A DNA stretch of 60,218 nt, the filler included. It is 2 parts of 2 records of this genome, joined end to end, with 100 filler letters (N's around TTAATTAATTAA, not from the genome) between each part and the next. Parts side by side here need not be neighbours in the genome. Positions count along the whole stretch, not along the records: positions 28,605 to 60,218 come from SRR20825006_2678; 1 more part is not named here. One strand, written 5' to 3'. Of this stretch, positions 30,269 to 59,935 are shown one piece after another; the first letter of the stretch is position 1, and each line of letters opens with the position of its first letter. A program made the translations under genes and the position numbers. The notes under the pieces are model-generated. The model did not search any database, had not been told where the DNA came from, and saw only the letters and a list, made by a program, of their open reading frames with translations.

Positions 30269-30390
30269 AGACAACAGTATAAGCAGTGATCTGTCAGGAT
30301 AGGATTTCTTTGAGTCAGGTTGCTGGGTTGGAAAGCTCTGTTGTTCGTAAGTGCTTAATGAGTAGTTGCTTAGGGGAAATATCGTTGGTT

Positions 30391-30406
30391 TGGCACGGGC
30401 GATGCG
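30391..30406 (+). promoter_or_regulatory. Sigma-54 (-24/-12) promoter of rtcBA
   Basis: TGGCAC-GGGCG-ATGCG, GG-N10-GC spacing, about 47 bp before the rtcB ATG, beside a divergent sigma-54 activator. Confidence 0.85.
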
Positions 30407-30452
30407 TTAGCTGTGTGCAACAACAAGCATCTTTCTTTGATTCGAGATTCAC

Positions 30453-31985: not shown

Positions 31986-33018
31986 AATCAATGGAAGCGA
32001 GGGCGAGGGAGGCGGGCAGATTGTTCGCTCCTCGCTCGCCCTCGCGGCAGTGACGGGGCAACCCATCCGACTCACCGACATTCGCGGCGGTCGCAAGAAA
32101 CCAGGGTTGCTTCGTCAACATCTGGCAGGTGTTCGCGCGATCCAACAGGTTTGTTCTGGCGAAGTCAGCGGAGACCAGCTTGGTTCGGGCGAATTGACTT
32201 TGGTGCCCGGTCAATTGTCCGGCGGTGACCATTGCTTTGAGGTGGGATCGGCGGGCAGCGCTGTCTTGGTGGCTCAAACCATCTTGCCGGTTCTTCTGCA
32301 CGCCGATGCTCCTTCCACGATCACGATCGGTGGTGGGACTCACGCCTCTTGGGCACCACCATTTGATTTCTTCTTGCGTTGCTACTTGCCATTGCTGGCT
32401 CGGATGAACGCGAAAGTCGAGGCTGAGATTGAATCTCATGGGTTCTATCCAGCCGGCGGCGGTAGAATCGTGATGAAGGTTGAGCCCTCCACAGGGATCA
32501 TGGGACTGACACTGACGGACCGAGCCGGCAGCGTGCAACCGAAAGTCACTGCATTGGTTTCCAGGATTCCAGAAACGGTTGGCCAGCGGGAGTGTGATGT
32601 GATCGCGAGGAAAACCGGATGGGGACAGAAGGCATTCCAGGTGGTCGATGTTCAGCAGTCCGGCGGTCCCGGCAACGTCGTGATGATCGAGTTGGGGTTT
32701 GACAATGTCAGCGAACTGATCATTGGATTTGGCAAGGTCGGAGTCAAAGCGGAGCAGGTCGCTCGTGCGGCACTTCGCGAAGCCCGTGCGTACTTGGCCA
32801 GCGATGTACCGGTTGGCGTCTACCTTGCCGATCAATTGTTGTTGCCAATGGGCTTGGCAGCACGCAATGGACACCGCAGTGAATTTCGCACCGGACCGTT
32901 GTCGCTGCACAGCCAAACCCACATCGACGTGCTTCAACGTTTTCTAGACATCAACATCAGGTGCGTCTCCAACGAAAACGGTACCGTCCACGTCAGTGTC
33001 GAAGGATGCAACGGGTAG
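31978..33018 (+). CDS. rtcA: RNA 3'-terminal phosphate cyclase
   Basis: 'GSEGEGGGQIVRSSLAL', 'RKKPGLLRQHL', 'GFYPAGGG', 'YLADQLLLP', 'SLH'. Start overlaps the rtcB stop. Confidence 0.95.
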   Translation: MIEINGSEGEGGGQIVRSSLALAAVTGQPIRLTDIRGGRKKPGLLRQHLAGVRAIQQVCSGEVSGDQLGSGELTLVPGQLSGGDHCFEVGSAGSAVLVAQTILPVLLHADAPSTITIGGGTHASWAPPFDFFLRCYLPLLARMNAKVEAEIESHGFYPAGGGRIVMKVEPSTGIMGLTLTDRAGSVQPKVTALVSRIPETVGQRECDVIARKTGWGQKAFQVVDVQQSGGPGNVVMIELGFDNVSELIIGFGKVGVKAEQVARAALREARAYLASDVPVGVYLADQLLLPMGLAARNGHRSEFRTGPLSLHSQTHIDVLQRFLDINIRCVSNENGTVHVSVEGCNG

Positions 33019-40070: not shown

Positions 40071-40165
40071 GTTTGGTACCTCCTTGTACCGCACATTGAT
40101 TTCAGTTGGACGCGAGGGAGTTCAGGTCAGCTGAAGGAATGGAAGGATGAGATGTGGTCGATGGG

Positions 40166-44716: not shown

Positions 44717-47326
44717 ATGCGATTTCTCCAGTCCAAATTGGCTCGCGATTGGAGGCCGAAGGCGTCGCGAATTTGGTCGCGTTCGTGGGCAAAATGGACT
44801 CGAGCCGATGCCGCCGAAGTCAGGCCGCCGGCCCGGTTTGTTCCGAGCATTCGTCCGCTCGAGAGACGGTTGGTTCTCAATGCGACTGCCGAGCTGACCG
44901 CGTTGGGTGAATTGTTGGTTCAAGGGGACGCGGGGTTTGACACCATCGAATCATCGCTCACTCCGGGCGGCGAACTTCAGTTCACAGATTCGGTAACCGG
45001 CATCATCCCCATCACGATTGGCCAAGACGTGATTGGCAATCCGATTCAGGTCGATTCGATCGGCGTCGACGCTATCACCGGTGGCCGCGTTCGAGTGAAC
45101 TTGGGGGCTGGCAACGATTCGTTGCTCTTGCGATTGCCTGATGGTTTGGATGCCACCGTTCGCGGCGGGCTCGGAAACGACAGCGTGGATGTCGAAGTGC
45201 TTTCGCCATCAACCATAGGAAACAATGTCGACGTATCGGCGGAGATGATCTCGGTCCGCGGGAACGCAACGACATCATTCGCGTTGTTGCCTGAGTTGGG
45301 AATGTCGGTCGTCAACATCAACGAACTGACCACCGAGGATGTCGGACGCGTCGACTTGGGAGAAGCAACCACCACGGTTCAAGACCGAGTGCAATTGATC
45401 GGGCTGCAAGACGATCTGGTTTTGGAATCGCATTTGACCACGCCGGTGTTGGAAGTCACCGGCCAAGGTGCGGTCCGTCAGTTGGCGACCAGTACTTTGG
45501 TGGTCGACGACTTAGATGTAACCGCGGATGCGGAAGTGACGTTGAATCAATCCGGCAACCAAATTTCCAACGTCCGAATACTCACGACCAATGCAGATGT
45601 GCAATTGGTCAGCCAGTCTGATTTGATTGTGGAGCAGATCGATGCCGGCAACGCGCGAGTCGAGGTGTTTGCGAATTCAATCAACGATTCCGCCGTGGAC
45701 AATTTGGCTGATTTTATTGCAGACGATCTTCTTCTTGAAGCAAACGACGGCATCGGCAACATACGAGAGTTGGAGTTGCAATCGGTGACTCAATTGGACG
45801 TTGATGCCGGTGATGGAAACGTGGACTTGGTTTGGTTGGCGGTGGACGAACCGGTGGTTGCGCGCGTCGAGTTTGGCGCGGGCGACTTTCGTTTGGAACA
45901 ATTCGGTGGACTTGATCTGACTCTCGAAAAAGTACTCGTTCACCAAGGTTCCATCTGGGTTCGCAACGATGGTGATGTGATCATCAAAGACGTGATGGCC
46001 GGCGATGGGTTCGTTGACGTGCACGCTGAGGGCGATTTGATTTTGATGGATGATGAATCCGTCGAGGATGGATCCGATCGCAAGTTGGATCCCGAAGTCG
46101 TGGCACTTGGGACCGACGGCCGAGTGCGGTTGTCATCCTCACAACGGATTGTGGCGTTGGATGATGTGCAGATCCAAGCGGCTTCCATTGATGCCGGCGC
46201 GGTGACACTTTCTGCACCCGCGATCGAACTCGGTCGGCAATTCGAAATCAATACCGGGGATGGCGTCGGAATCGCGAGACAATTCACACCGCGACCGGTG
46301 CTCGACCCCGAAGACCTTGTTCCACCCAATCCCGATTTGCCGCCCCGTCCGGCTGCTCCTCCGGTTGCGCCGGAACCTGGTGAATTGACCGAAGCGTTCT
46401 ATCAGCATGACTCCATTCGCACGAACATCCTGTCACAGTTTGATGTCAATGACGCCGAGGGAATCTTGTCGGTCAATCTCGGAACCGAAGGTGAAAACGG
46501 TCTGACATTGATTGTTGACTGGGGAGCCGAAACGGAACGGTTCCAACGTGTCGAAAATCTTCCTGGATCGTTTCAAACGACCAGTGTCAGCCATGTGTAT
46601 TTAGAAAACGACATTCTCGAATCGACATTGAATGGACGCGGAAGTGCCACCGACCCGTTGAACGTTTTGTTTGCGGTGGAGCATCATGAATCGATCCAGT
46701 TGATCGGCGAATCCATCACGCAACCCAACACGGACGGGCTTCTCGTTTCGTTGGATGTTCCCGGAAGCGTGATTTCATCAACGGACAATCCTTTGACACA
46801 AACCTCAGCTGGTCCGATTCTGGAATCAGGGGCAGCGTTCTTTGTCATTCCACGTGTGAATGTCCCGCTTGCTTTTTTACCTGTCCGAGATGTCATTCCC
46901 GAGCCGGTTGATCCGGTGACCCCCGTTGTGATAACGACCACCACAACGCTCACGAGCGTGACGTTTGAAACGTCCGAAGCTTCGTCCAGTCCAACAGCGA
47001 TTCGAGAAGAGTTCTTTCAACTCCGTGCTCTTTCGCCCGATCCCGACGCGGCGGATTTGATCGAACCGGTGCGTTTGCCGGACCGATCCTTGGAAAGTGA
47101 TTCCTTGAACCGACTCTTTTCGAAACTTCCCGATGGCGAGTACGAAATTCAATATGTGATTGGCGAGTCGGATGAACGCACGATTCTGCAGGTTGAACTG
47201 AGAGATGGACGTCCGATTCAAACCGGTGATGACTTGGAAGCGGGAACGCTGCGTTTGATTCCGCTCGACTTAGAAGAGTTGGATTCGGATCAACTCCCAA
47301 AAGAGGAGCGTGATCGTGACGAATGA
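44717..47326 (+). CDS. Large acidic beta-rich protein with planctomycete extracellular (LExRxxL) leader
   Basis: 'IRPLERRLVLNA'; 'VNLGAGNDS', 'GGLGNDSV' RTX-like turns; Pro/Thr linkers. Confidence 0.75.
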   Translation: MRFLQSKLARDWRPKASRIWSRSWAKWTRADAAEVRPPARFVPSIRPLERRLVLNATAELTALGELLVQGDAGFDTIESSLTPGGELQFTDSVTGIIPITIGQDVIGNPIQVDSIGVDAITGGRVRVNLGAGNDSLLLRLPDGLDATVRGGLGNDSVDVEVLSPSTIGNNVDVSAEMISVRGNATTSFALLPELGMSVVNINELTTEDVGRVDLGEATTTVQDRVQLIGLQDDLVLESHLTTPVLEVTGQGAVRQLATSTLVVDDLDVTADAEVTLNQSGNQISNVRILTTNADVQLVSQSDLIVEQIDAGNARVEVFANSINDSAVDNLADFIADDLLLEANDGIGNIRELELQSVTQLDVDAGDGNVDLVWLAVDEPVVARVEFGAGDFRLEQFGGLDLTLEKVLVHQGSIWVRNDGDVIIKDVMAGDGFVDVHAEGDLILMDDESVEDGSDRKLDPEVVALGTDGRVRLSSSQRIVALDDVQIQAASIDAGAVTLSAPAIELGRQFEINTGDGVGIARQFTPRPVLDPEDLVPPNPDLPPRPAAPPVAPEPGELTEAFYQHDSIRTNILSQFDVNDAEGILSVNLGTEGENGLTLIVDWGAETERFQRVENLPGSFQTTSVSHVYLENDILESTLNGRGSATDPLNVLFAVEHHESIQLIGESITQPNTDGLLVSLDVPGSVISSTDNPLTQTSAGPILESGAAFFVIPRVNVPLAFLPVRDVIPEPVDPVTPVVITTTTTLTSVTFETSEASSSPTAIREEFFQLRALSPDPDAADLIEPVRLPDRSLESDSLNRLFSKLPDGEYEIQYVIGESDERTILQVELRDGRPIQTGDDLEAGTLRLIPLDLEELDSDQLPKEERDRDE

Positions 47327-50300
47327 TAAAGATCGACAAGGCGAACCAGATCACGGTTTACCGGAGGATGAGAATGCGACCGAAAATCATTTCAGTTTGG
47401 ATGAGACGGTTGAGGAAACCGATTCGATTGAACGAAACGATCATCGCGGGCTGAGCGAAACGGTCGATCATGTCGACTTGGATGCAACCTTGGACGAAGG
47501 CAATATCATTCCGGTCGCTCCTTCAAACGATCCGGATGCGACGGTCGCTGATTTGGACAAAACCGTCGAGGAAACCGACCAGACGGTGCAAGATACCGAT
47601 CAAACCATCATTGAAAATGAGCTGACCGTAACGAACGCCGATGCAACGATTGCGGATGCGTCTTCGACGGTTTCAGATGTGAATGAAACGATCGCGGAAG
47701 ACGCTGACTTTGACCCAGATGAGACGCTGCTTGAGGCGGACCAAACGGTATCGGACTCCAATGTCACGGTTGTCGACGAAACGTTGAACGACGTGGACGC
47801 AACCGTTCAAGAGTCGGACCTGACCGTGGTGGAAACAGAGGCCACCGTTGATCTCAATGCGACGTTGGATAAAACGGCGGAAAAAACGATCCCCACCATC
47901 CACGCCAATTCCAAGACTCGAGAGGATGCGAACGAGGCGACCGAGGGAACCATCCTGACCGACGAAGACATTGGTCAAACCATCAACCCTCGCGAATTGA
48001 CATCCGAGGACGTGAGTTATTGGTCCAAACTGTCGCAGGAATTTCACACCGGTGCGGCGACGGTTGCGTCGTTTAGTGAGTTTGGATCGGCGGTTGCCGG
48101 TTCGTCGTTACCTCTGCGTGGGCGGCAAGTCACGACTCCGCAGGAAAGCGAAACCGAAGCGTCGGACTACCGATTGGTTCGGTTGCTTGGCAAAGGTGGG
48201 ATGGGCAATGTTTTCGTTGCTCGGCAAGGATCTTTGGATCGATTGATCGCGGTCAAGATCATCAAGCCGTTGGAAGAAGACAAACGCGACGCACTTCGGA
48301 AACAGGGGCGATTGGAGTCCACTGAGAACAGCCGGCGTCAGCAGTTCTTGACCGAAGCGGTGATCACCGGCGACTTGGATCACCCCAACATCGTTCCAAT
48401 TCATGATGTGGCGGTGACTGGTGAGAACACTTTGTTCTACGCCATGAAGCGAGTCGTCGGCACGCCTTGGAACAAAGTCATCGGTGAGAAGTCGCGGGAT
48501 GAGAATCTCGAGATTCTCATCAAAGTGGCCGACGCAATCGCGTTCGCTCACACGCGAGGGATCATTCACCGAGACATCAAACCTGAAAACGTGATGCTGG
48601 GGGATTTCGGTGTCGTGATGGTGATGGATTGGGGGATTGCGTTGGCGATGCCTCAGTTTGAAAAACTCAATTCAATCACACCCGCGAAAGGATTGGGTGG
48701 CACACCATCGTTCATGGCGCCTGAGATGGCGACGGGACCGTTAGAGGCGATCGGTCCAGCGGCGGATATCTATTTGCTCGGTGCAACGCTGTTCATGATC
48801 GTCACCGGCAAGGCACCGCACCACGCAAAGAATGTTCGAGAGTGTTTGCGAGCGGTCGCGACCAACGAAATTCGCGAAGTGGACCCACGGCACGAAGGCG
48901 AACTGCTTAACATTGCTCGCAAAGCGATGGCGACTCGCATCGAAGACCGCTATTCGAGCGTGATCGAGTTCCAAGAAGCCATTCGCGAATACCGATCGCA
49001 CTCCGAAAGCATCTCGTTGGCGGCCAGGGCGACAGATGATCTGAACAAGGCCGAGCAGACGCTTTCGTACACGTTGTTCTCACGAGCGACGTTTGGGTTT
49101 GAGGAAGCACTTCATCTGTGGGATGGAAACCAAACAGCGCGAGAGGGCATCGCTCGGGCGCGGTTGGCTCACGCTTCCGCAGCTCATGACAACAAAGACT
49201 TTGATCTTGGTTTGTCGTTGCTGAAACCGGATGGCTTGTTGCTGCATGATTCGCCCGAGCACGAAGCCCTGGCGACGAAGCTGGAACAAGCCATTCAAGA
49301 CCGCAAGGCTCGTGAGTCGCGGTTCAAGTTCTTGAAGCGTGCCGTCGCTGCGATGTTGTTGTTCATCTTTGTCGGCGGTGCGTTCGCATTGGTGACGATC
49401 AACGCGAAAGAACAAGAGGCACGGCAATTTGCAGAGAATGCGGAGCTGAGACGCAAGGAAGCTGAGGAGCAAAGGAAAATCGCAGAAGGTGCGACCAAAC
49501 AAGCGAGAAACAATTTGCAATTGGCCGAGGATAACTTGGATCGCGCTTTGGCTGGGGAAGAGTTAGCGAAAAAAAACGCGGAGAAGGCGGACGCGAATGC
49601 AAAGGAAGCCGTCGAAAACGCGAAGCTCGCTGTTAAGAATGCGAAGGAAGCGGAACGCAACGAAAAACGCGCCGAGTTAAATGCAGAGGAGGCTCGCATC
49701 AGTGCAAACGCCGCCCTGGTTGCTCAGGAGAAGGCCGAGATCGCTCGAGCCGAGGCGGAATATGAGTCGTATGTTTCGCAGATCGGGCTGGCCAAAGCGC
49801 GTGTGGATCGGAACGAGTTCTCCGACGCTCGACGTATCCTTTCGGAATTGACCGAAGACTATCGAGAGCGGTTTCCCAACGATCCATTGCCGTGGGAACT
49901 GCGCTGGTTGTCAGCGACCGTTCATCAATCCAAAACAGTCGCTTCGCTACCCGTGATCGCGGATCAATTGTTGTTGGCTCAGGCTCCAACGAGTGAGTCT
50001 CGGCGTGGTTTGATTGTTCAAGATAATGGAAAGATTGCGACGTTTTCTCTTGCCAATACTGATCGATTGGCGATGGCGGAAGCATGGAGCGATCCCGATG
50101 GTGGATTCGTCACGGCTGCGGCGATGAATGAATCAGGTGAACAAGTTGCACTCGGAATGCTCGACGGAAAAATCGAAATTTGGAACGAGGATTTGTCCGT
50201 TCGCGTTTCACGATTGCCGGCGCACGACGGACCGGTTAGCGATCTTGGTTTTGCCGACTCGAATACTTTGGTTTCGTCATCCACAGATCGCACCATTCGG

Positions 50301-53084
50301 CTTTGGAACTTGAATTCGAGAAATGAAAGCGACATTCCTGCTTACAGCGAACACTGGCACGTCGGTCCGGTCACGCAGGTCGCTGCTGTTCGCGATGGTG
50401 AAACGGTTTGGGTTTCTGCGGCGGTAAACGATTCGGCACGTGGCCGTGTGGCGGTTTGGAACATCGGTGTCAATCGAGACGGAGCGGGGACGCGGGTTGG
50501 CCGTTTCATGCAGCATGATTCGGAGGTCTCTGCGTTGTCGGCTTGGATGGAGGATGACTCTCCCGTGTTCGCAAGCGGTGACACCGATGGAAATGTTTTC
50601 GTTTGGGGGCAAGGCGATTTGGTTGATGCGGATCCGAAAAAAAGCATTGAAAGTGCGGTTCAGGATTTGGCTTCGGTTGATGCATCTAATACCCGCATTG
50701 ATGAACCCAAAGCGTCAGCCGAACCCGCACCAATTCATCGTGGCGGGGTGCAGGCCATTCGTTATGACAAAACGATCGATCGCCTGATCACCGCTGGCAA
50801 GGATTACGTGGTGCGAACTTGGAAGCGCGCAGACATTCCGCACGAGGCTGAACTCGGGCCATGGGCTCGCGAACGATCTTTGCGAGGTCACGGCGGTGCG
50901 GTGAAGGCAGCTGTGTTTGTTCCTGCATCAGGTGGGGACGTGCTGTCTTTGGGCGACGATCAAACGCTTCGATATTGGGAATCGGAAACGGGTCGGTTGG
51001 ACAGCAGATTGGAAGAGGATCTCACTTCCGCTCGGGCATCGAGCAATCAAGATTTAGCGGCGGATGGTTTGGACGCCTTCGAAACGGCCGCTCATGATGA
51101 TGAAATCTGGTCGGCTCGATTCAGCCCCGATGGAACGAAGGTCGTGACATCCAGTCGCGATCACACGGCGCGAGTGTTGTCGATAGATCCCGGCACCTCC
51201 CGCTTCGACACGCGACTGACGATCTCATCGGATCAGTCGTCGTCGGAGGAAGATGGTGGAACACTGGAAGAAGGCAGCGCGTTCGGTGCGATGTCCATGC
51301 GAATGGACCCTGTGCATCGCCGGTTGTTCCTCGGCAATGCCGACGCGACGGTCCGCATTTGGGACATCGATCGTGGGACAGAACTCGGCAGCGTTCGTGG
51401 CACGGGGCTGAACGATGTGTTGGCGGTTTCGAAAGATGGAAGTCTTCTTGCTACCGGTTCCAGTTCCGCCGAATCGGATGTTTTGGTCTGGAAGTTGGAC
51501 CCGTCCAAGCAAGTCTCGCCTCGGTTACTGCATCGTTTGAATGGGCATGAAGAATCCGTCGCCGCATTGGCGATTTCTCCTGATAGCCAGTGGTTGTTCA
51601 GCGGTGATCGAGCGGGCCGAGGCCGTGTATGGGATTTGCAAACAGGTGAGCCGGTTGGCGAACCAATCGACGATCTTCTTGGCTTTCGCATCAACACGGC
51701 TTCGTTCGCCGGTGATTCAAAAAGTGTTTGGGTTGGATCAGACAATCAGTCGTTGATGCGTTGGCGTTGGTCTGACAGGACTTGGGTGGACCGCCATGAC
51801 ACCAATGGTTTCGTGATGAATCTTGTCGTCTCACCCGATGGGCGGCAGGCGATCACAATCGATCAATCGAAGCGAACCGACCGAACGATTTCCAATGTGA
51901 CCTGGTGGGATCTTTCCAATGGCAAACAACAGCGGTTGCTTTCGGAAACATTCTCGAATGATCAGACCAGTGCCTTTGGTGGTCGTCCCAACTTTGGCGG
52001 AGCGGCTTTCTCCACTGATGGTCGATTAGCTCGTTTGGTCGTGACTCCGGCTGGCGGACGATCCAGTCGCGTTGAGACTTGGGATCTGTCCGGTAACGTT
52101 GGGACGGCGAAGCGAGTCGCGGCAGTTGAGTTGCCAGAACGCATTGGGGAGTGCACGGCGGTGGCGTCGCTGCAAGGTGCCCGTTTTGTGACCATGCATG
52201 GCAATGCGGCGTTTCGATGGGACGGGGACTCCAACACCCATTTAATGAGCTATCGAGCTCACGGTGCGGTCACGCGAGCCACATTTGCCGGGGGTGATCG
52301 CCGGGTAATCACAGCCAGTCGCAGTGTCAAAGTTTGGGACGCGGAGTCGGGAAAGACAGTCGGCAAATTGGAGTCGCCTCATGAGGGCACCGTTCGTGCG
52401 ATTGCAATTTCACCGAAGGAAACGTTTCGCTTGGTGACCGGCGGCGACGATTCGCGAGTTCGTGTTTGGGACTTCGATGAAGAAACCGGATCATTCCAGT
52501 CCGTTCGTCAGTGGAACGATCCGATCTTGCAAGGTGGGATCGCTTCGTTGGATTTCAGCCCGGATGGTTCGTGCTTGCTGGCGACGACCAATCAAGGTGC
52601 GGCAACGTTGATGCGGATGGACGGGAAGGCGACGCTCAATCTGGTGGCGGATCCGTCGCTGGGTAAACTGAACGTCGGTCGCTTTTCCAATGATTCAAGA
52701 TGGGTCGCGGTCGGTGGATCCGACAACGTCGCGAGGATGTGGGATGTGTCGAAGTGGTTCAAAAACCCGAGGCTGGGAGGGGCTGATATGAAGGCGCCGA
52801 TCCAGCTAATTGGGCATGCGGAACCGATTGCCGATTTAGCCGTGCTGTCCAATCCGCTTCGGTTGTTTACAGCTAGCGAAGATCGATCGGTGAGAGTTTG
52901 GGATCCGATTGCTCAAGGAGCGAATCATGACGAGCAAGCGAGATTCGGACGAGAGCTGCTAGAGCTGCGTGTTCACAAAAATGCATTGTCCGCGTTGGAT
53001 TTGACCGACAAGGGTGATCTGATGATGACGGCATCCGAAGACGGCACCGTGCGGTTGTGGCCGGCGATGGTGGATCCTGACTGA
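47316..53084 (+). CDS. Giant membrane Ser/Thr kinase with Thr-repeat N-terminus, coiled-coil stalk and WD40 propellers
   Basis: 'LGKGGMGNV', 'AVK', 'HRDIKPEN', 'DWG', 'GTPSFMAPE'; TM 'AVAAMLLFIFVGGAFALVTI'; many GH...WD repeats. GAGGAG RBS before GTG 47316. Confidence 0.92.
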   Translation: MTNDKDRQGEPDHGLPEDENATENHFSLDETVEETDSIERNDHRGLSETVDHVDLDATLDEGNIIPVAPSNDPDATVADLDKTVEETDQTVQDTDQTIIENELTVTNADATIADASSTVSDVNETIAEDADFDPDETLLEADQTVSDSNVTVVDETLNDVDATVQESDLTVVETEATVDLNATLDKTAEKTIPTIHANSKTREDANEATEGTILTDEDIGQTINPRELTSEDVSYWSKLSQEFHTGAATVASFSEFGSAVAGSSLPLRGRQVTTPQESETEASDYRLVRLLGKGGMGNVFVARQGSLDRLIAVKIIKPLEEDKRDALRKQGRLESTENSRRQQFLTEAVITGDLDHPNIVPIHDVAVTGENTLFYAMKRVVGTPWNKVIGEKSRDENLEILIKVADAIAFAHTRGIIHRDIKPENVMLGDFGVVMVMDWGIALAMPQFEKLNSITPAKGLGGTPSFMAPEMATGPLEAIGPAADIYLLGATLFMIVTGKAPHHAKNVRECLRAVATNEIREVDPRHEGELLNIARKAMATRIEDRYSSVIEFQEAIREYRSHSESISLAARATDDLNKAEQTLSYTLFSRATFGFEEALHLWDGNQTAREGIARARLAHASAAHDNKDFDLGLSLLKPDGLLLHDSPEHEALATKLEQAIQDRKARESRFKFLKRAVAAMLLFIFVGGAFALVTINAKEQEARQFAENAELRRKEAEEQRKIAEGATKQARNNLQLAEDNLDRALAGEELAKKNAEKADANAKEAVENAKLAVKNAKEAERNEKRAELNAEEARISANAALVAQEKAEIARAEAEYESYVSQIGLAKARVDRNEFSDARRILSELTEDYRERFPNDPLPWELRWLSATVHQSKTVASLPVIADQLLLAQAPTSESRRGLIVQDNGKIATFSLANTDRLAMAEAWSDPDGGFVTAAAMNESGEQVALGMLDGKIEIWNEDLSVRVSRLPAHDGPVSDLGFADSNTLVSSSTDRTIRLWNLNSRNESDIPAYSEHWHVGPVTQVAAVRDGETVWVSAAVNDSARGRVAVWNIGVNRDGAGTRVGRFMQHDSEVSALSAWMEDDSPVFASGDTDGNVFVWGQGDLVDADPKKSIESAVQDLASVDASNTRIDEPKASAEPAPIHRGGVQAIRYDKTIDRLITAGKDYVVRTWKRADIPHEAELGPWARERSLRGHGGAVKAAVFVPASGGDVLSLGDDQTLRYWESETGRLDSRLEEDLTSARASSNQDLAADGLDAFETAAHDDEIWSARFSPDGTKVVTSSRDHTARVLSIDPGTSRFDTRLTISSDQSSSEEDGGTLEEGSAFGAMSMRMDPVHRRLFLGNADATVRIWDIDRGTELGSVRGTGLNDVLAVSKDGSLLATGSSSAESDVLVWKLDPSKQVSPRLLHRLNGHEESVAALAISPDSQWLFSGDRAGRGRVWDLQTGEPVGEPIDDLLGFRINTASFAGDSKSVWVGSDNQSLMRWRWSDRTWVDRHDTNGFVMNLVVSPDGRQAITIDQSKRTDRTISNVTWWDLSNGKQQRLLSETFSNDQTSAFGGRPNFGGAAFSTDGRLARLVVTPAGGRSSRVETWDLSGNVGTAKRVAAVELPERIGECTAVASLQGARFVTMHGNAAFRWDGDSNTHLMSYRAHGAVTRATFAGGDRRVITASRSVKVWDAESGKTVGKLESPHEGTVRAIAISPKETFRLVTGGDDSRVRVWDFDEETGSFQSVRQWNDPILQGGIASLDFSPDGSCLLATTNQGAATLMRMDGKATLNLVADPSLGKLNVGRFSNDSRWVAVGGSDNVARMWDVSKWFKNPRLGGADMKAPIQLIGHAEPIADLAVLSNPLRLFTASEDRSVRVWDPIAQGANHDEQARFGRELLELRVHKNALSALDLTDKGDLMMTASEDGTVRLWPAMVDPD

Positions 53085-53101: not shown

Positions 53102-55312
53102 TCAGCTATCCGCACGGAAGTGGGTGGCCAGCCAGTGCTTGGTTCGTTTCCACAGCGAAGAAGGCTCAACGTGCACGCTCACGCTGGTTGTCCAATTGGA
53201 TGGTGGAGCAAAATTAAACGGTCGCTTGTCTGAATCCAGTGCAACAGTGACTTTGTAAGTCCCATCATTCTCGGACGGACGCGTGCCCACTTCTGTGACA
53301 TTTCCCGTCCATGTGGTGCCTGAAGGGAACGACGTGACGGCTGATTGGCCCTCTCGTATCCATCCGATCTGCGATGCGTCAACGGACACAGAAACCTTGT
53401 GTTGATCGTTTGATACGACGTTGCAAATGGGAGTTCCGCTGCTGATCCAAGCTCCTCGGTTGATCGCTTCAGTTGGCTGGCCACTCCATCCGATTTGGGA
53501 TCTTGATCGCTGCCAGGGTGTGATGGGATTGGCCGAAACCGCAACGATCTGACCCGCGTGAGGTGAACGAATCTCAAGGTGCTCCGATTCCTTTTGGATC
53601 GTCAGCAGTTCTTCGCGTTTGGCTTGCAAAGCGAATTCAATGGTCGGGATATTGGCCAAGGTGGTAGTTCCGGCGTCCGATTGGATGCGGCTCATGCGAG
53701 TGCCCTTCAGGCGAGCTTCCAACTCAGCAATCTCGCCCTCAAGGCGTTCGATTTGGAGGGTGGTTTTCCAGTCTGACAGCCTGACGAGTGGTTCGTTGAC
53801 CCGCACCAACTGTCCCGTTGAGGCAATTGATTCCAGGCGACCCGTGGTCAATGCAAAGATCTTTGATTGCTGGATCGGTTGAACCTTCGCCGTTGCCTTC
53901 ACGCGGTGAGGAAGCGGTGTGAAGAGAATTGCTAGCAACAAGACGGCAACCATGCCAATCATCAACCGAGAACGGCGGCGAGCTTTCCCAGGAGCGAGAT
54001 CGGATGGAGTTCGCACGATGGGAGCGGTCCAAGCTCGCATCACGCGATAAAGGAGAATCACGATTGCGACGATGCCAATGGCGGTCGCACCGATCGACGC
54101 GAGATGGTTGAGTAGAAGCCAGCCGATGGCTCCGAAGATCACCAAGCGATAAGCAGTGCTAGCAAGTGCGTAGGCGAGCAATCCGATAGAGTCGCGATCG
54201 TCTTGCACCGTGGTGGGTTGGGACTGTGATTCCGTTTGAACCGAAGATGGACCCCAAAACCAAGACCGCAAACGCATTTGTAAAACGCTGCGCGAACGTG
54301 TTGCTAGATTGGGAACGGAGGCCGCGTCGGACAACAGATAGTAGCCGTCGTAACGCATCAATGGATTGCCGTTGAGGATCAACGTGTTGACCGATGTGAC
54401 CATCAATACGAACAGCAATATGTTTTGCGGAAGTCCTGGCATCGAATGAGTCCAGGCGACCAGTGCGAGTGATCCAATTACGCATTCAGCCAGGATTCCT
54501 GCGGCGGAGACGAGCATTCGTTTCCATGGTTGCGGTATCAACCAAGCGTCGCTGACATCGCAATACAAACAAGGGATGCCGAATAACAGCATGACGCCCA
54601 TTTCGTGACAGCTTCCTCCGAACCATTTGCAGGCGATTGCGTGGGCGAGTTCATGGATCAGCTTGACTCCCGAAATCACAATCGCCAAAACGATCCAAGT
54701 GGATGGGGATTGCAACGCCTCGGTGCTCTGACCGATCGCCGGAATCAATTGTTCCCAGTGCGTGAGAAGAATGGCTCCTGCGAACAACGCCCACGCCGAA
54801 CCAAAGATCACGAAGGCATGTCGATTCCTTGCAACAAAGTTTCGAACGAATTGCACCGGTCGATCAAGCCATCGATCGGGATCCACCAACGGGATTCGAA
54901 TTGCCAACGGATTTTTAACCGCACGTTGCCAAAAAGACTTTTTCAATTCGCATTGCTGGGTTCTCGCTTCACTTTGCGAGATGGCTTGAGTTCCGACAGC
55001 TGACGCGGTGGTGAGCCAAGTGTTTTGATTGGCTTGGTTGATGAATGCCGCAAAGTCTTCTCGCGAAAGTTTGATTGGTGCGAGCAGACGTTGGCAATGA
55101 AGGTGAGCTTGCTCGAACGTTCTTCGTCCATCCAGGCTTTGCAGAACCGCAAATTCTTGCTCATTGACCATCCACTGCGCTGAGGAGCGATCGTGGGAGC
55201 CTCGCGTGGATACCACGGGATCTCGGATGACCCACTGAAAGGTTTTCCCAACGCGGATGATCCGGCAGATCAAATCCGGACGCAATCGAGGTTGGATGGC
55301 CACGGAATTCAT
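53102..55312 (-). CDS. M50 (site-2) metalloprotease fused to a HlyD-like adaptor, with PqqD/RRE-like N-terminus
   Basis: 'HELAH', 'CHEMGVM', 'NGNPLMRYDGYY'; N-terminal 'PRLRPDL..IRDP...LQSLDGRRT'; C-terminal lipoyl/coiled-coil 'IRSPHAGQI'. Confidence 0.82.
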   Translation of the reverse strand: MNSVAIQPRLRPDLICRIIRVGKTFQWVIRDPVVSTRGSHDRSSAQWMVNEQEFAVLQSLDGRRTFEQAHLHCQRLLAPIKLSREDFAAFINQANQNTWLTTASAVGTQAISQSEARTQQCELKKSFWQRAVKNPLAIRIPLVDPDRWLDRPVQFVRNFVARNRHAFVIFGSAWALFAGAILLTHWEQLIPAIGQSTEALQSPSTWIVLAIVISGVKLIHELAHAIACKWFGGSCHEMGVMLLFGIPCLYCDVSDAWLIPQPWKRMLVSAAGILAECVIGSLALVAWTHSMPGLPQNILLFVLMVTSVNTLILNGNPLMRYDGYYLLSDAASVPNLATRSRSVLQMRLRSWFWGPSSVQTESQSQPTTVQDDRDSIGLLAYALASTAYRLVIFGAIGWLLLNHLASIGATAIGIVAIVILLYRVMRAWTAPIVRTPSDLAPGKARRRSRLMIGMVAVLLLAILFTPLPHRVKATAKVQPIQQSKIFALTTGRLESIASTGQLVRVNEPLVRLSDWKTTLQIERLEGEIAELEARLKGTRMSRIQSDAGTTTLANIPTIEFALQAKREELLTIQKESEHLEIRSPHAGQIVAVSANPITPWQRSRSQIGWSGQPTEAINRGAWISSGTPICNVVSNDQHKVSVSVDASQIGWIREGQSAVTSFPSGTTWTGNVTEVGTRPSENDGTYKVTVALDSDKRPFNFAPPSNWTTSVSVHVEPSSLWKRTKHWLATHFRADS

Positions 55313-56433
55313 CGTGTTGTTCCGTGATCAATATTGGGAAGCAACAGTCGAGCCGGTGACCCGGGGAGCAATTTTCCGTCGGCGTTGTCAACTTCAATCC
55401 AGAAGCGAGTTTCTCGGGTCAGTGGATCGACTTCGGGGCTGATGAATTTTGCTTCGCCGGTTCGTTCGGTTGTCTCACCTGTCGCAAGCTCGACGATCAG
55501 CTTGGGTTCGGATTCGTCACGAAGCCAATGGATCCATTTGGCGGGCAGGTAGCCTTCCACTCGCAGGCGATCCAGTCGCACCACACGTGCGATCGATTCT
55601 CCGGGTTGGACCCAGTCACCCACTCGGTGCGAAACCTCAACCACGATTCCATCGATCGGCGACTTCAATGAGTGTTGTTCGACGTTTACCCGTGCCAGTT
55701 CGAGTTGTTGCTCCTTGAGCTTTTTCTTAAGCTGGACTACGTTCGCCGCTGCCTTAGCTTGTCGAACTGCGACGTCGGCCGATCGGATTTTGGTTTGCAG
55801 AGATGCCGCGGTGGCCTGGTCGACCGATTGTTCCAAGCGAGCGTTCTCTTGTTCAAAGATGGCTTGCTGGGTTTCCAGACTTCGTTGTTCATAAGCAAGG
55901 CGGAATTGATCGATCTCGGATTGCGAAACCGCGTCGTCGAAATCTTTCTTCGCGTTGACCGCACGCGTCCATTCGCTCTTGGCAACCGCTTCGGCTTTTT
56001 GGGCAGCCTGCACCCGGATGTCGTTTTCGGCGAGACGTTTTTGAATCGCTGCGCCGGCATCGTGTTCCTTCGCCGCACTCCTTTGTTCTTCAAGGAATGC
56101 GAGAGCGGCGTCCAGATCTAAGGTTTGGTCACTTTGAAATTGGATGATCGCGAGATCTTGTTCAGCGGACTGTTGTTGTAGGCTGGCTACCACATCATCG
56201 AGGCTGGCCAGCAATTCACCGCGATCAACAGCGTCACCTTCGGTTACATGAATTTTGACCAACCGTCCGGGATGCACGGCGACGGCCGATCCTGACTGCG
56301 CAGCCGTGACAATCAGATTGCCGATCCAGGTTGTTGGTTGCGAGTCGTTCGAAACTGTCCGTCGCGAGTCTTGGGCGAATATGGGGAAGGTGACGACAAG
56401 CGAAAGTCCCGCTGCGATCATTGCTCGGTGCAT
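55309..56433 (-). CDS. HlyD/RND periplasmic adaptor (membrane fusion protein)
   Basis: Signal peptide; 'GRLVKIHVTEGDAVDRGELLASLD', coiled coil, 'SPIDGIV', 'FISPEVDP', 'LLPG'. TAATG overlap with the upstream gene. Confidence 0.88.
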   Translation of the reverse strand: MHRAMIAAGLSLVVTFPIFAQDSRRTVSNDSQPTTWIGNLIVTAAQSGSAVAVHPGRLVKIHVTEGDAVDRGELLASLDDVVASLQQQSAEQDLAIIQFQSDQTLDLDAALAFLEEQRSAAKEHDAGAAIQKRLAENDIRVQAAQKAEAVAKSEWTRAVNAKKDFDDAVSQSEIDQFRLAYEQRSLETQQAIFEQENARLEQSVDQATAASLQTKIRSADVAVRQAKAAANVVQLKKKLKEQQLELARVNVEQHSLKSPIDGIVVEVSHRVGDWVQPGESIARVVRLDRLRVEGYLPAKWIHWLRDESEPKLIVELATGETTERTGEAKFISPEVDPLTRETRFWIEVDNADGKLLPGSPARLLLPNIDHGTTR

Positions 56434-57818
56434 TACCAAATCTTCCGAAGGGAATCGAAGAAGGGACGAAAGAGGACGAATGCGAGACTGCGTCGTCCTG
56501 CTGCTACATCGCCAACGACCGTCGAGCCCATCGGCTGGTCGGTGACACCTTTTAGAGTCGACGGAACGGTGGCGCCGAGTCGGATGACAGGTTGTTGTTC
56601 GGCATTGGGATGCACCGCAGATGCGATATCTTGAACTTCACCGGTCCAGCTGACATCAGGCTGAGCCCGCAGCCGCAAGCGGCAGATCAAAGGCTGGCTT
56701 TCTGATTGGGCCTGCAGGACATGTCCAATGTGTTGCTCGGCCAGTTCCAGGTCGGCGATCATTCCGGCGGATGAATCCACCACGTCAAAAAGCCATTGAC
56801 CTTGGAAGACGTCACGTCCCACCAAGGTTTCTTTTTCATCCCAGCGTCGGATTTGGCCTCGGACTGTCGAGCGAATCGACATCGATTCTTGCACGGCCTG
56901 CAGTAGCTCAAGTTGTTTCTCATACGATCGAATACGTTCTCGAAGAACCAATTCGTTCGTCGAAGATTGCAGCCCGCTCGACTCGGTTGATGTGTCGGAC
57001 GAACTCGATTGGTTCGATCGGCCGGATCGAATCGTGCGACGCCCGGCCAGTTCTGCTTTCGCTGTCGCCAAGTTTCCCGCGACCATTTGGGTTTGCAGGT
57101 CGAGTTCGTCGCTTCGCAGTTCGAGAAGGAGTGTGCCCGGTTCGACTTGTTGTCCATCTTCGACGTGTACCGTGACCACTCGGGCCGCAGTCGGTGCAAA
57201 GAGACGTTGTTGGTGGATCGGTTCCAGGCTGCCTGCCACGGGGAGTCGCAAGGGAACCTGGACAAAAGCCAGGACCAACGTGACGGCGGCGAGGACGGTC
57301 GCCCAAATTGCTCTCGAGAATCGACGTTTGGGGCGTGGCGGCGATGTTTGAAATTGGTCGACTGCACGCTGGAGCGCGGGGGCAAGTGTGCTGCTGATCG
57401 ATTCCCAGTCCGCTCTTAGATCTGCCGAGTCGACTTGTTGTGCTGACGAGTCGAACGTTTCAAGAATTAAGAACGACGTCGCTTCGGTTGCCTCTTTCGC
57501 ACGAAGCGGCAGAATCAATATCGTTTGCGCACCGGAGTTCTCGCGATAACGATCCAGCTGGTTTTGAAAGAACGTGTCAGTTCGGGGCTCGGTCGATTCC
57601 TGAATATGCGAAAGGATCGAGGACCAATCGCGAGCGACGGGCGAATCCACCGCGGTCTCGGATTGCACGGAGGAACCCATCGGAACCCATTGGTTCTCTC
57701 GCCGCGCGAACCACAACGCTCGGTCAGCGCGAGTGCGAGCGACGATGTCGTGACACAGTTGATACGGTGTCAGTTCATCGGTCGGCGCGGCGGATTGAGA
57801 TGGAATGGTGGCTGTCAT
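56433..57818 (-). CDS. HlyD-like adaptor with N-terminal degenerate GAF-like domain and TM anchor
   Basis: 'ILILPL....FLILETFD', TM 'AIWATVLAAVTLVLAFVQVP', 'VHVEDGQQVEPGTLLLEL', C-terminal 'GRRSLAFVLFR'. Confidence 0.78.
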   Translation of the reverse strand: MTATIPSQSAAPTDELTPYQLCHDIVARTRADRALWFARRENQWVPMGSSVQSETAVDSPVARDWSSILSHIQESTEPRTDTFFQNQLDRYRENSGAQTILILPLRAKEATEATSFLILETFDSSAQQVDSADLRADWESISSTLAPALQRAVDQFQTSPPRPKRRFSRAIWATVLAAVTLVLAFVQVPLRLPVAGSLEPIHQQRLFAPTAARVVTVHVEDGQQVEPGTLLLELRSDELDLQTQMVAGNLATAKAELAGRRTIRSGRSNQSSSSDTSTESSGLQSSTNELVLRERIRSYEKQLELLQAVQESMSIRSTVRGQIRRWDEKETLVGRDVFQGQWLFDVVDSSAGMIADLELAEQHIGHVLQAQSESQPLICRLRLRAQPDVSWTGEVQDIASAVHPNAEQQPVIRLGATVPSTLKGVTDQPMGSTVVGDVAAGRRSLAFVLFRPFFDSLRKIW

Positions 57819-57991
57819 GGTTGCGATTGGGAGCCGGTTTCACGGTTGAAACCAGTTGCCTAGTTTAACCAGCCGTCGCAAAGTCTCTGCGTCGTTGTTT
57901 GGGTGTACTTGGAAACCCTCGCTGCTCCATTTGATTGAGATTCGCTCAATCTCGATGCATCGATCAGTCGAAGAATCCGGATAGTGCGGGT

Positions 57992-58007
57992 TGCATCAGT
58001 TGTGCCT
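57992..58007 (-). promoter_or_regulatory. Possible sigma-54 promoter for the HlyD-HlyD-M50 operon
   Basis: Minus strand AGGCAC-AACTG-ATGCA, GG-N10-GC spacing, pointing toward start 57818. Confidence 0.42.
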
Positions 58008-58045
58008 CCTGCGCCCTCATTTAGCGGATTCATCGAGGGGAAAGT

Positions 58046-59935
58046 GTGACCAAAGGTCGACCCAGTGCAGGTCGTTCGATGGTTCGATGGGCATTGGGTC
58101 ATCGAGCTCGGCGGATTTTGTGCGCCGGCGGAATGGTTCTGACGATGGCACCGGCCATCAGTTCGTTGGGTTGCCGTGCGTCAAGGGCATTGCCTGAAAC
58201 GATTGGCAATTGCACGGCTCATGTCGATCAGATCATGTCTCGCGTTGACGCCGGGGCACCGCCGGAAACGCTCACGACACCGGTGATTGCACCGCTGACA
58301 TTACGAGATCCCGAGGCATTGGCCAAAGCGGATTACCGAGACCTGACGCTGCAGCAAGCTCTCAATCAAGCGATGAGCAACAGTGAGGTCTTGCGGGATC
58401 TCAATGCAACCGTGCTGCGGGCACCTGAGACGGTGACGACCGATGAGAGCCCCGGATTGGTCCAAACGGATCCACAACTTGGAATGGAAGCCGCACTCTC
58501 GGCGTTTGATGCGCAGCTCACTGCGGTCGGCACTTGGCAAAACAACGACCGTCGGTTCAACAACCGATTCTTTGGCGGTGGTGCTAACGCGTTCAAGCAA
58601 GATGTGCATGACTACGTATTGCAGTTGTCCAAGCGAACGGCAACGGGTGCGGAGATCAGTCTGCGAAGCATCACGGATTACGACGCGAACAATGCGACGG
58701 GCAACCTGACGCCTAGTGCCTGGCAAACGCAATTGCACGCTGAATTGCGACAACCATTGCTGCAGGGCGGCGGGTTGGCATTCAACCGGATCGCCGGGCC
58801 AGCGGCTTTGCCGGGTGTGTACAACGGTGTCTTGATTGCGAAGACGAATAGCGACATCTCCAACGCTCAGTTTCGCGAAGACGCCCGCAACTATCTCAGC
58901 AACGTGATCAATGCGTACTGGGATTTGTACTTTGCTTATCGCGATGTCGACGCCAAGCAAGAAGCAGTCGCTCGCAGCTTAGAAACATGGCGAAGCTATG
59001 ACGCACAGAAGTCGTCCAACCGACGCGGCGGATCGGCGGAAGCTTTGGCAAGAGAGCAGTACTACCGATTTGTGTCAGAGCTGCAAGACGCGATCGCGGG
59101 CAAACTGATTCAGCGAACCCAAACCAACAACTCCACCTCTGGCGGCACCTTCGCGGGCGTCACGGGAGTTCAAGCGGCGGAGCGTCGTTTGCGTTTGTTG
59201 ATTGGTTTGCCGATCGCCGATGGGCAACTGCTGCGTCCTGTCGACGAACCCTTGTCGGCTCCGTTGATCTTTGACTCTCAATCGTTGGCGGTTGACGCGT
59301 TGCGAATGCGGAGCGAATTGCAGCAACAGCGGTTGCTGGTCAAACGTCGCGAGTTAGAAGTCATCGCGGCGAAGAACTTTCAACTGCCAACTTTGGACCT
59401 TGTCACCACGTATCGACTGCGCGGTCTCGGCAAGGATTTGGCGGGCAGCGATTCCGCGTTCAACGAACTTGGGACCGGCGACTACCAAGAGTATGAAGCC
59501 GGAGTTGAATTCCGTATGCCGGTTGGTTTTCGCCAAGCACACGCGGCGGTGCAGCATGCCAAGATTCAGGTGGCGCGTGAACGGGCGGTGTTGCGAGAGC
59601 AAGAGCGACAGATCACCCATGACTTGCTAGCGGTGGTCGCGGAGACGGATCGAGCATACGCCCAGATGGAAACCAACTTGAATCGCTACCTGGCCTCGAA
59701 GGATGCACTGGATGCTCTTGAGGCCAACCGCAAGGCGGGTTTGCCGATCAGTTTGGAGCAATTGCTTGACGCCCAGCGAAGGCTCAACGAGTCACAGACT
59801 CGTTATCACTTGGCGATGACCGAGTACATGATCGCGGCCAAGAACGTGTACTTCGAATCCGGGACGCTGCTCGAAAACTGCCACGTCGGAATCATCGGCG
59901 ACACGGTCAAAGCAATGCCGGTTGCTTCTGAGTAG
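58046..59935 (+). CDS. TolC family outer membrane channel (probable lipoprotein)
   Basis: 'LTLQQALNQAMSNS', 'ELRQPLLQG', 'NVINAYWDLYFA', 'LPTLDL', 'LLDAQRRL'; lipobox-like 'SSLGC'. Start uncertain. Confidence 0.88.
   Translation: MTKGRPSAGRSMVRWALGHRARRILCAGGMVLTMAPAISSLGCRASRALPETIGNCTAHVDQIMSRVDAGAPPETLTTPVIAPLTLRDPEALAKADYRDLTLQQALNQAMSNSEVLRDLNATVLRAPETVTTDESPGLVQTDPQLGMEAALSAFDAQLTAVGTWQNNDRRFNNRFFGGGANAFKQDVHDYVLQLSKRTATGAEISLRSITDYDANNATGNLTPSAWQTQLHAELRQPLLQGGGLAFNRIAGPAALPGVYNGVLIAKTNSDISNAQFREDARNYLSNVINAYWDLYFAYRDVDAKQEAVARSLETWRSYDAQKSSNRRGGSAEALAREQYYRFVSELQDAIAGKLIQRTQTNNSTSGGTFAGVTGVQAAERRLRLLIGLPIADGQLLRPVDEPLSAPLIFDSQSLAVDALRMRSELQQQRLLVKRRELEVIAAKNFQLPTLDLVTTYRLRGLGKDLAGSDSAFNELGTGDYQEYEAGVEFRMPVGFRQAHAAVQHAKIQVARERAVLREQERQITHDLLAVVAETDRAYAQMETNLNRYLASKDALDALEANRKAGLPISLEQLLDAQRRLNESQTRYHLAMTEYMIAAKNVYFESGTLLENCHVGIIGDTVKAMPVASE

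Follow-up and report, generated by a model that had tools for sequence, protein, structure and literature searches.

Layout of the locus

We examined four neighbouring genes that encode a TolC-family outer-membrane factor, two HlyD-family adaptors and a predicted fusion of a RiPP recognition element (RRE; RiPP, ribosomally synthesised and post-translationally modified peptide), a site-2 protease and a third HlyD-family domain. The genes lie in a 60,218-nucleotide stretch of DNA, filler included (hereafter the window; positions 28,605 to 60,218 come from record SRR20825006_2678). The window is planctomycete DNA, as it encodes PF07595, PSCyt and DUF1501 families, and the best database relatives are Rhodopirellula proteins. 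The nearest genome, a single 7.1 Mb contig (G001), was used for genome-wide comparisons and carries the same locus at 98-99% protein identity (98% for the fusion protein and 99% for TolC).

Open reading frames (ORFs) and gene junctions were read from the window sequence, and domains were scored against Pfam and NCBIfam cut-offs. The two adaptor genes and the fusion gene form a minus-strand operon with overlapping junctions. The adaptor 1 stop codon and the adaptor 2 ATG share the sequence TAATG at 56433, and the adaptor 2 stop codon and the start of the fusion gene share ATGA at 55312. The TolC gene is divergent from this operon (Table 1). All three operon products contain an HlyD_3 domain (34.1 bits in adaptor 1, 70.8 bits in adaptor 2 and 48.4 bits in the fusion protein, against a Pfam cut-off of 22.2). 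The TolC protein matches OEP in two stretches (Pfam accession PF02321, 70.1 bits against a cut-off of 22, E 2.8e-19) and scores 43.9 bits with TIGR01844, under the cut-off of that model.

Adaptor 1 also matches Biotin_lipoyl_2 (34.6 bits). It comprises an N-domain of about 165 residues that is predicted to be cytoplasmic, a membrane segment (residues 170-188) and a periplasmic domain of the HlyD/membrane-fusion protein (MFP) type. Pfam assigns no family, and no GAF domain, to the 165-residue N-domain. Adaptor 1 takes the place of the GAF-HlyD gene of paralogous loci: the L010, L011 and L012 paralogues align with it across the MFP part, and L010 bears GAF and GAF_3 domains. Adaptor 2 consists of an N-terminal signal-anchor followed by an MFP domain with a long coiled-coil hairpin, and it matches HlyD_D23 (57.5 bits) and TIGR01730 RND_mfp (103.6 bits against a cut-off of 94.9). 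Each of these two adaptors has a single hydrophobic segment by hydropathy. TIGR01843 type_I_hlyD scores only 28-37 bits on the operon adaptors, against a cut-off of 208.65, and neither C39 nor ABC (ATP-binding cassette) families were found on the three operon proteins or TolC in Pfam or NCBIfam at E <=0.1.

Table 1. Positions of the export locus, the parts of its fusion protein and nearby genes in the window.
Feature	Residues	Position	Strand	Remarks
Adaptor 1 gene		56433-57818	-	461 aa; HlyD/MFP
Adaptor 1 N-domain	~165 residues	57324-57818	-	predicted cytoplasmic
Adaptor 2 gene		55309-56433	-	374 aa from ATG at 56433; listed ORF from TTG at 56439, 376 aa
RRE-M50-HlyD fusion gene		53102-55312	-	736 aa
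RRE domain of fusion (predicted)	~5-100	55013-55300	-	
Site-2-protease core of fusion (predicted)	136-440	53993-54907	-	
HELAH motif	220-224	54641-54655	-	
NPLMRYDG motif	316-323	54344-54367	-	
Final membrane segment of fusion (predicted)	450-468		-	
Periplasmic MFP of fusion (predicted)	470 to end	53105-53905	-	
Divergent intergenic region		57819-58045		227 bp; presumed from sequence alone to hold the promoter region of both transcription units
TolC-family outer-membrane factor gene		58046-59935	+	629-aa ORF from GTG; true start may be an internal Met
Candidate cargo 1		44717-47326	+	869 aa; basic N-terminus
PLERRLVLN of candidate cargo 1	47-55	~44855-44881	+	
Candidate cargo 2		34824-40094	-	1756 aa, adhesin-like; SdrD_B / SpaA / CarboxypepD_reg repeats
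'Planctomycete extracellular' motif of candidate cargo 2	26-45	39960-40019	-	
Ser/Thr kinase with WD40 propellers		47310-53084	+	1924 aa; Pkinase 7.4e-31, WD40 1.1e-63

The fusion protein

Profile matches and structure models indicate that the 736-residue protein is an RRE domain joined to a site-2 protease, one more membrane segment and an HlyD adaptor. A hydropathy scan found eight hydrophobic windows, three of them overlapping, which suggests about seven membrane segments. This number is odd, which predicts a cytoplasmic location for the N-terminal RRE and a periplasmic one for the HlyD domain.

An AlphaFold2 (AF2) model that covers residues 5-140 and used 46 aligned relatives (pLDDT 80.8) has strands followed by three helices, the winged-helix fold of RREs, with an extra inter-strand loop peculiar to the clade. 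The best Foldseek matches of this model are TfuB1 and TbiB1 with bound leader peptides, followed by LynD/TruD, MccB and PqqD. VIA-align Z scores to RREs span 7.5-10.2 and include TigE (10.2, rmsd 2.0, 83 residues aligned), TbiB1 (9.4), TfuB1 (9.3), MccB (8.4), the PbtF RRE (8.1) and PqqD (7.5), with NisB inside this range. PF05402 (PqqD) matches 28 of the 46 aligned family members at E <=0.1 (best 1.2e-7). It is also present on one database relative, and a Methylosinus homologue is annotated 'PqqD family protein'. When a family profile was compared with PDB sequences, TfuB1 and PqqD ranked top at weak E-values (0.078 and 0.12).

The model of residues 136-440 (pLDDT 89.7) resembles site-2 proteases. 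Its structural matches include RseP (9j82_A, Z 9.9, rmsd 4.3, 165 residues aligned; 7w6x, 9.4), mjS2P (3b4r_A, 8.6) and SpoIVFB (8vjl_A, 8.0); seven chains of this family fall at Z 8.0-9.9, and the next-ranked chain is at 4.6. The key residues of the HELAH and NPLMRYDG motifs (H220, E221, H224, N316, D322 and G323) do not vary across alignments of 15 and of 41 relatives.

Among NCBIfam models, NF041824 (daptide_HExxH) covers residues 43-428 and 348 of 379 model positions (E 4.1e-45, 154.5 bits against a cut-off of 300), and NF058609 (YydH/LiaK) matches at E 1.4e-8. Among characterised proteins, the nearest relative is the leader peptidase of daptide biosynthesis, an RRE-dependent intramembrane enzyme. 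The preprint on daptides describes, in the part that covers the peptidase, an RRE-site-2-protease fusion and removal of the leader by the 'RRE-dependent intramembrane peptidase' MpaP.

An earlier note on this DNA, made from the sequence, had described three coupled minus-strand genes with membrane-fusion domains on every product, a divergent TolC gene, intact M50 motifs and an RRE-like N-terminus. The junctions, domain scores, conserved residues and structural matches given above agree with it on each of these points.

Genes beside related loci

The fusion gene has six full-length paralogues in G001. A long HlyD gene, a short one or both lie beside each of them, and TolC is adjacent in three. 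A scan of one genome per species gave 600 matched stretches, 597 of them confirmed relatives; the best 80, all from Planctomycetota, were kept and joined with the six G001 loci to make a set of 86 planctomycete loci. A tblastn search of plasmids with the fusion protein gave 77 records, largely proteobacterial among the matches listed, and we examined ten plasmid or chromid loci chosen from the top 25. Relatives of the fusion protein number more than 1000 in databases and occur in 42 of 151 sampled Planctomycetota genomes.

Neighbour clustering of the 86 planctomycete loci recovered the fusion gene in 82. HlyD genes came next, short ones in 51 loci and long ones in 49, followed by DUF3467-like genes in 13 and TolC in 10 (13 by phmmer). 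No other gene occurs in more than six loci. ABC ATPase genes were detected in four of the 86 loci, each several kilobases off the operon, and in one of the ten proteobacterial loci, outside the operon. None of the 58 PF00005 (ABC) matches in G001 lies within about 49 kb of the six paralogous loci. Searches of the window with phmmer, using two ABC ATPase probes from G001 and two SecA-like probes, gave no match among 343 ORFs of at least 60 residues. Other polytopic ORFs are encoded within 6 kb in 20 of 82 loci, but these belong to many unrelated clusters without a recurrent family. Seven small convergent ORFs downstream of fusion genes, which may be spurious, include six without a Pfam match and one FxsA (L020).

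SecA-like genes were identified within the cassette in seven of the 86 planctomycete loci, four of the ten proteobacterial loci and one of the six G001 loci (L013). Kamneva, Poudel and Ward (2015; PLoS One, PMC4452313) reported Peptidase_M50, GAF-HlyD, HlyD/biotin-lipoyl and sometimes OEP genes beside secondary SecA_DEAD genes. The sections of that paper on the module describe no ABC transporter at these loci, propose that SecA_DEAD is the ATPase and that the M50 protein may form a pore, and call the biological role of the module completely unknown. Our literature search found no paper on the module beyond this one.

These surveys bear on several statements of the earlier note. It had reported no ABC gene beside the operon and no SecA gene in the window, and both statements hold for the window; the ABC gap extends to the related operons. 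The link to SecA_DEAD proteins that it mentioned is in print for the same module (PMC4452313). Its proposed neighbourhood survey finds ABC genes consistently absent and LExRxLL-type proteins linked to the loci in two phyla (see below). The SecA_DEAD genes that it expected in such a survey are present in the minority of loci just counted and absent from the window and from most loci.

An ordinary tripartite efflux or type I system, with its ABC, RND or MFS pump encoded elsewhere and the M50 protein as an accessory, would be consistent with the energised transporter found in all known MFP-TolC systems (general knowledge, and PMC8277102 where it treats such systems). G001 has 58 ABC-domain matches, and RefSeq calls the relatives efflux adaptor subunits. 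Across the six G001 paralogous loci and the 96 loci from two phyla, however, the adaptor genes are kept together and never with a pump, and the place of the inner-membrane partner is taken by an adaptor fused to a protease with seven predicted membrane segments. We regard a pump encoded elsewhere as very improbable.

Processing of a small, unannotated RiPP or bacteriocin-type precursor, trimmed by the RRE-protease and exported through the adaptors and TolC, is very improbable as well. The closest characterised relatives are RiPP leader peptidases (the NF041824 match at 4e-45 and the YydH/LiaK match), and RRE domains are a RiPP hallmark, typical of such systems according to the daptide preprint where it treats them. 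Neighbour clustering of the 86 loci, however, turned up neither a conserved small ORF nor a modification enzyme. The sole recurrent small gene, in 13 loci, encodes the DUF3467-like protein of 110-192 residues, which has a conserved, folded-looking domain, and the recurrent neighbours are giant tagged proteins.

The DUF3467-like protein (highly conserved core; RefSeq DUF3467 in proteobacterial loci) goes with one cassette type in both phyla. In Proteobacteria its gene separates the giant gene from the long adaptor gene, and in Planctomycetes it follows the fusion gene. Examples are L010 (11363-11839), L162 (6384-6704), L168 (12594-12890) and L171 (11463-11768), and the gene is found just downstream of the fusion gene in L033, L039, L052, L062, L070, L082, L085, L087 and L089. 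The window locus has no DUF3467-like gene.

Three of the SecA-like genes within proteobacterial cassettes are annotated 'prepilin peptidase' (Methylosinus, L162 10781-12778; Pseudosulfitobacter, L170 17957-19981) or 'DEAD/DEAH box helicase' (Mesorhizobium, L171 16730-18817). They match the SecA-like paralogues of G001 at E 1e-92 to 1e-134 and, by sequence, look like misnamed shortened SecA proteins. G001 also has a second SecA-like gene (L018, G001:C1:1061671-1062894, 741-aa frame), an orphan at 1.06 Mb, far from the six M50 loci. L018 is the closest relative of the SecA-like genes within other planctomycete cassettes, and its product may serve a cassette in trans.

Further genes accompany subsets of the loci. 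At L025, L050, L068 and L079 the fusion gene is followed by a gene for a protein of 1171-1365 residues with weak similarity to AsmA (E 1e-8) and GspN (4e-6), and is preceded by a conserved gene without a family that encodes 503-628 residues. The Variovorax cassette is followed on the same strand by the type II secretion genes gspG, K, M, D, E and F (L167 17204-25834). Some fusion paralogues are interrupted by a single in-frame stop codon: TAG in 788-aa frames of three same-genus genomes (G156:C2:217805-219985, G162:C30:95514-97292 and G167:C24:7473-9233), and TGA in a Novipirellula paralogue (G003:C1:2658034-2660238).

Tagged proteins beside related loci

The best case for a link between cassettes and tagged proteins is found outside Planctomycetota. 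In seven of the ten proteobacterial loci the gene immediately upstream of the cassette, on the same strand, encodes a giant protein (Azospirillum, Methylosinus, Burkholderia anthina, Variovorax, Thalassospira, Pseudosulfitobacter and Mesorhizobium). The encoded proteins range from 3302 to 16239 residues; in Azospirillum a 798-aa DUF4347 gene abuts a 3383-aa Ig-like gene. The operon of Azospirillum brasilense has the order giant-TolC-MFP-HlyD-M50. Five of the giant N-termini were read, and each contains an LE(P/A)Rxxx-type motif 30-50 residues from the start (TLEPRVLL, ALEPRFMF, ALEPRVVY, IEPRILL and ALEARYMF). RefSeq names two of the proteobacterial giants 'LEPR-XLL domain-containing protein', one of which makes a sixth tagged giant of the seven. 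The other three loci differ. In Magnetospirillum the giant's position is occupied by a repeat protein of 492 aa whose annotated start lacks the motif. The Phyllobacterium locus has a 1412-aa protein without the motif and, 3.3 kb off on the other strand, a separate canonical ABC-HlyD pair. On the Rhodobacteraceae plasmid nothing is annotated upstream, in a gene table that is incomplete.

A tree of planctomycete fusion proteins separates clade A, which includes the window protein, from clades B and C. Among clade B loci with at least 5 kb of flank, six of ten have a giant LExRRVL(N/Q/S) protein downstream. Clade C loci, which carry DUF3467 and sometimes SecA-like genes, include four with LExRxLL(A/D) neighbours. 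The neighbour motifs thus differ between the two clades, and the motif variant tracks the fusion clade. A complex prediction of RRE and leader for one clade B pair (L060), in which alignments were not used, scored 0.26 and 0.24 against a mark of 0.34 and weighs neither for nor against binding. In G001, the giants beside the paralogous loci L013 and L014 begin with leader-like motifs, the giant beside L014 is one of three ORFs that match the LEPR-type model NF012209, and roughly 30 tagged proteins are encoded elsewhere in the genome.

Leader-like ORFs are found in 16 of 53 M50 loci of at least 15 kb and in 4 of 60 regions of 20 kb taken as controls (odds ratio 6.05, p 0.0012), a p-value that overstates the case because the regular expression was written after the motif had been seen in these loci and because the loci are mutually related; the controls, moreover, came from three genomes.

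The 'Planctomycete extracellular / LEPR-XLL' tag has been viewed as a probable export signal since 2004, and PMC8567305, in the part concerned with the tag, cites Studholme et al. The tag follows a basic stretch that resembles the n-region of a signal peptide, and this resemblance favours a two-step route, the main variant of the mechanism that we favour. Tagged proteins would cross the inner membrane through SecYEG, driven by the housekeeping SecA here and by a SecA-like paralogue elsewhere; the M50 fusion would act as leader peptidase only, and the adaptors and TolC would carry a periplasmic intermediate out. The SecA-like genes within some cassettes and the ATPase role proposed for SecA_DEAD in the sections of PMC4452313 on the module are consistent with such a route. 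The tagged proteins that were read, however, lack a hydrophobic core beyond the basic stretch and therefore give no clear sign of ordinary Sec targeting. Most cassettes, the window's included, also lack a SecA-like gene, and a cytoplasmic RRE, as predicted, would fit recognition before translocation under either model. We consider the two-step route unlikely.

Candidate cargo in the window

Two window proteins, each with a basic N-terminus ahead of an LExRxLL-type motif, are candidate cargo for the operon. The 869-residue candidate cargo 1, encoded 5.8 kb from the operon, has a motif matched by regular expression only, no N-terminal hydrophobic segment and no Pfam or NCBIfam family. Candidate cargo 2, the 1756-residue adhesin-like protein encoded 13 kb away, matches the Planc_extracel model PF07595 at 28 bits against a cut-off of 25.5 and SdrD_B at E 2e-136, and it has no hydrophobic signal segment. 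No LEPR-type NCBIfam model matches either protein.

Close orthologues of the fusion protein (E <1e-120) occur in four of 16 same-genus genomes. The same four genomes alone hold a full-length orthologue of the 869-residue protein, each 5.8 kb from the fusion orthologue, a co-occurrence that could be plain synteny of near kin.

A Ser/Thr kinase gene lies between candidate cargo 1 and the fusion gene and is convergent with the latter; its start is overlapped by 17 nt by the end of the candidate cargo 1 gene. The kinase gene is co-inherited with this block, with spacing conserved in four genomes. A kinase gene also abuts and converges on the paralogous M50 gene in L013 (5579-8542, +).

The kinase would be relevant to a possible signalling device based on regulated intramembrane proteolysis, governed by the cytoplasmic domain predicted in adaptor 1 and perhaps by the kinase, and tethered to the outer membrane. 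RseP and SpoIVFB, structural matches of the protease core, act in signalling, GAF domains occur in paralogues, and a kinase gene abuts the fusion gene at both loci. Signalling would leave the RRE, the three adaptors, TolC and the operon linkage to giant tagged proteins unexplained, however, and no anti-sigma or sigma gene recurs among the 86 loci. We consider such a device highly improbable.

Comparison with characterised systems

The gene families of the window locus are those of the 2015 SecA_DEAD module, also without an ABC gene, and the G001 locus L013 includes a SecA_DEAD gene. The window locus differs from that module in having no SecA_DEAD gene and no Pfam-detectable GAF domain on the long adaptor. 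An RRE and LExRxLL/LEPR-XLL cargo are not mentioned in the sections of PMC4452313 that cover the module.

Type I secretion systems (T1SSs) for giant adhesins and RTX proteins likewise have a TolC-family channel and HlyD-family adaptors encoded together, and at related loci the operon also includes genes for giant, repeat-rich surface proteins devoid of Sec signals. T1SS signals are C-terminal and uncleaved, whereas the window-type signal is N-terminal and probably cleaved. Unlike T1SSs, the window and related loci have no ABC gene in the operon, three different adaptors instead of one and a protease as the inner-membrane component. Systems built on a C39 peptidase-ABC protein (PCAT) with HlyD and TolC recognise and cut an N-terminal leader with a protease of the export apparatus, as we propose here. 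PCATs, however, use a cytoplasmic C39 cysteine protease with ABC domains to export small peptides with double-glycine leaders, whereas the fusion protein combines a zinc site-2 protease with an RRE, has no ABC domains and has presumed cargo that is huge.

The daptide peptidases MpaP/DapP, like YydH/LiaK, share the N-terminal RRE and site-2-protease core, and the daptide leader motif ELExMEAP, as given in the part of the preprint concerned, loosely resembles LExRxLL. The window fusion differs from them in scoring under the 300-bit cut-off and in having an extra membrane segment and an HlyD domain. Daptide clusters have ABC exporters as neighbours where the window has adaptors and TolC, and no daptide tailoring gene (aminotransferase, decarboxylase or methyltransferase) was found among the window neighbours scanned. 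RseP, SpoIVFB and mjS2P share the fold of the membrane core, the HExxH motif and an Asp-bearing second motif; no PDZ or CBS domain is reported in the fusion protein, which has an N-terminal RRE and a C-terminal periplasmic adaptor instead.

For each family that the locus resembles, one defining feature is missing: there is no ABC protein as in T1SSs and PCATs, the daptide match is below cut-off and without daptide context, and there is no SecA_DEAD gene. The locus is far from any characterised kind of system, while the gene module itself has been in print since 2015.

Proposed mechanism

Taken together, the homologies and neighbourhoods suggest, at a probability of roughly 0.6, that the operon exports and trims large surface proteins carrying an LExRxLL tag by an uncharacterised route. 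The four genes would probably encode one of six paralogous envelope-spanning machines of a Rhodopirellula-type genome, which would belong to a widespread family devoted to proteins that begin with a basic stretch and an LExRxLL-type tag. The system would then be a SecA-less member of a family of leader-dependent, TolC-linked export and processing systems.

The cytoplasmic RRE would bind the N-terminal tag of the cargo, as suggested by its fold and by homology to RRE-dependent leader peptidases, and the site-2-protease core would cut the leader at the inner membrane, by homology to MpaP. The HlyD domain of the fusion protein and the two adaptors may then assemble in the periplasm and dock to TolC, through which the processed protein would exit; we infer this bridging and the exit of the cargo from the roles of HlyD and TolC families elsewhere. 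Judging by their absence from the loci, no ABC, RND or MFS pump would take part. Some related cassettes encode a shortened SecA-like ATPase, which the window cassette does without. Likely cargo would include the 869-residue protein, the 1756-residue adhesin-like protein and some of the approximately 30 tagged proteins elsewhere in the genome.

The earlier note had proposed that the M50 fusion replaces the ABC transporter as cargo receptor, leader peptidase and possibly channel, with a hetero-oligomeric adaptor bridging to TolC. Homology suggests the receptor and peptidase roles; the channel role and the hetero-oligomer find no such backing, and we know of no protein-conducting function of a site-2 protease.

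Several observations weigh against export and trimming by this operon, in addition to the post hoc regular expression and the possible synteny described above. The window's own fusion N-terminus has no PF05402 match in Pfam, and the Pfam M50 model (PF02163) scores 26.9 bits on the fusion protein, just below its gathering cut-off of 27.2, although four of five G001 paralogues scanned clear that cut-off (27.9-33.9 bits). In five other same-genus genomes, distant homologues of the 869-residue protein lie away from M50 genes, and clade A has no recurrent tagged neighbour beyond the four closely related genomes. Across five genomes, just 3 of the 30 fusion genes lie within 20 kb of a leader-profile match, approximately the chance expectation, and by genome-wide distances most tagged genes are scattered, with no general clustering around M50 loci. 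A 27-column leader profile matches 13 of the 151 phylum genomes, 4 of which have the fusion gene, and PF07595 matches two, with no signal of co-occurrence with the fusion gene (42 of 151); as leader models are short and lineage-specific, this phyletic test is weak. An ABC or Sec component may act in trans, and every step of the mechanism beyond domain identity is our reconstruction.

A broader reading, which we put forward tentatively and hold to be doubtful, is that these cassettes form a secretion pathway of their own in diderm bacteria, independent of ABC transporters, through which some of the largest proteins known would be exported. The fusion protein, as an oligomer, would serve as receptor, peptidase and inner-membrane gate. 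In versions without SecA, such as the window's, the energy for export would not come from a dedicated ATPase; the proton-motive force, the housekeeping SecA, and folding or binding outside the cell are conceivable candidates. Sorting could be many-to-many with clade-specific tags, as the six paralogous machines and approximately 30 tagged proteins of one genome might allow. To our knowledge, characterised TolC-linked systems all use an energised inner-membrane transporter. Here a leader-binding intramembrane protease would stand in for a defining part, yet the cassette occurs widely and lies beside proteins of up to 16,239 residues.

If export and trimming by the operon is correct, the unexplained 'Planctomycete extracellular / LEPR-XLL' tag would gain a function, there would be an explanation for the exit of giant surface proteins that lack Sec signals, and RRE-guided proteolysis would reach beyond small RiPPs to protein secretion. 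To the published module the window adds a clade that has no SecA gene and a divergent TolC gene, together with a genome that carries six paralogues.

Other features of the window

The window also contains a complete RNA repair operon, in which the gene for the sigma-54 activator RtcR is divergent from rtcB and rtcA (28652-33018). Two tandem PSCyt1/PSCyt2/PSD1 pairs with DUF1501 proteins, the usual planctomycete pairing, are encoded on the minus strand (10611-19937). On the plus strand are genes for a VKOR-thioredoxin fusion protein (21252-22718) and a rhomboid protease with a cytoplasmic Rhomboid_N domain (3236-4357).

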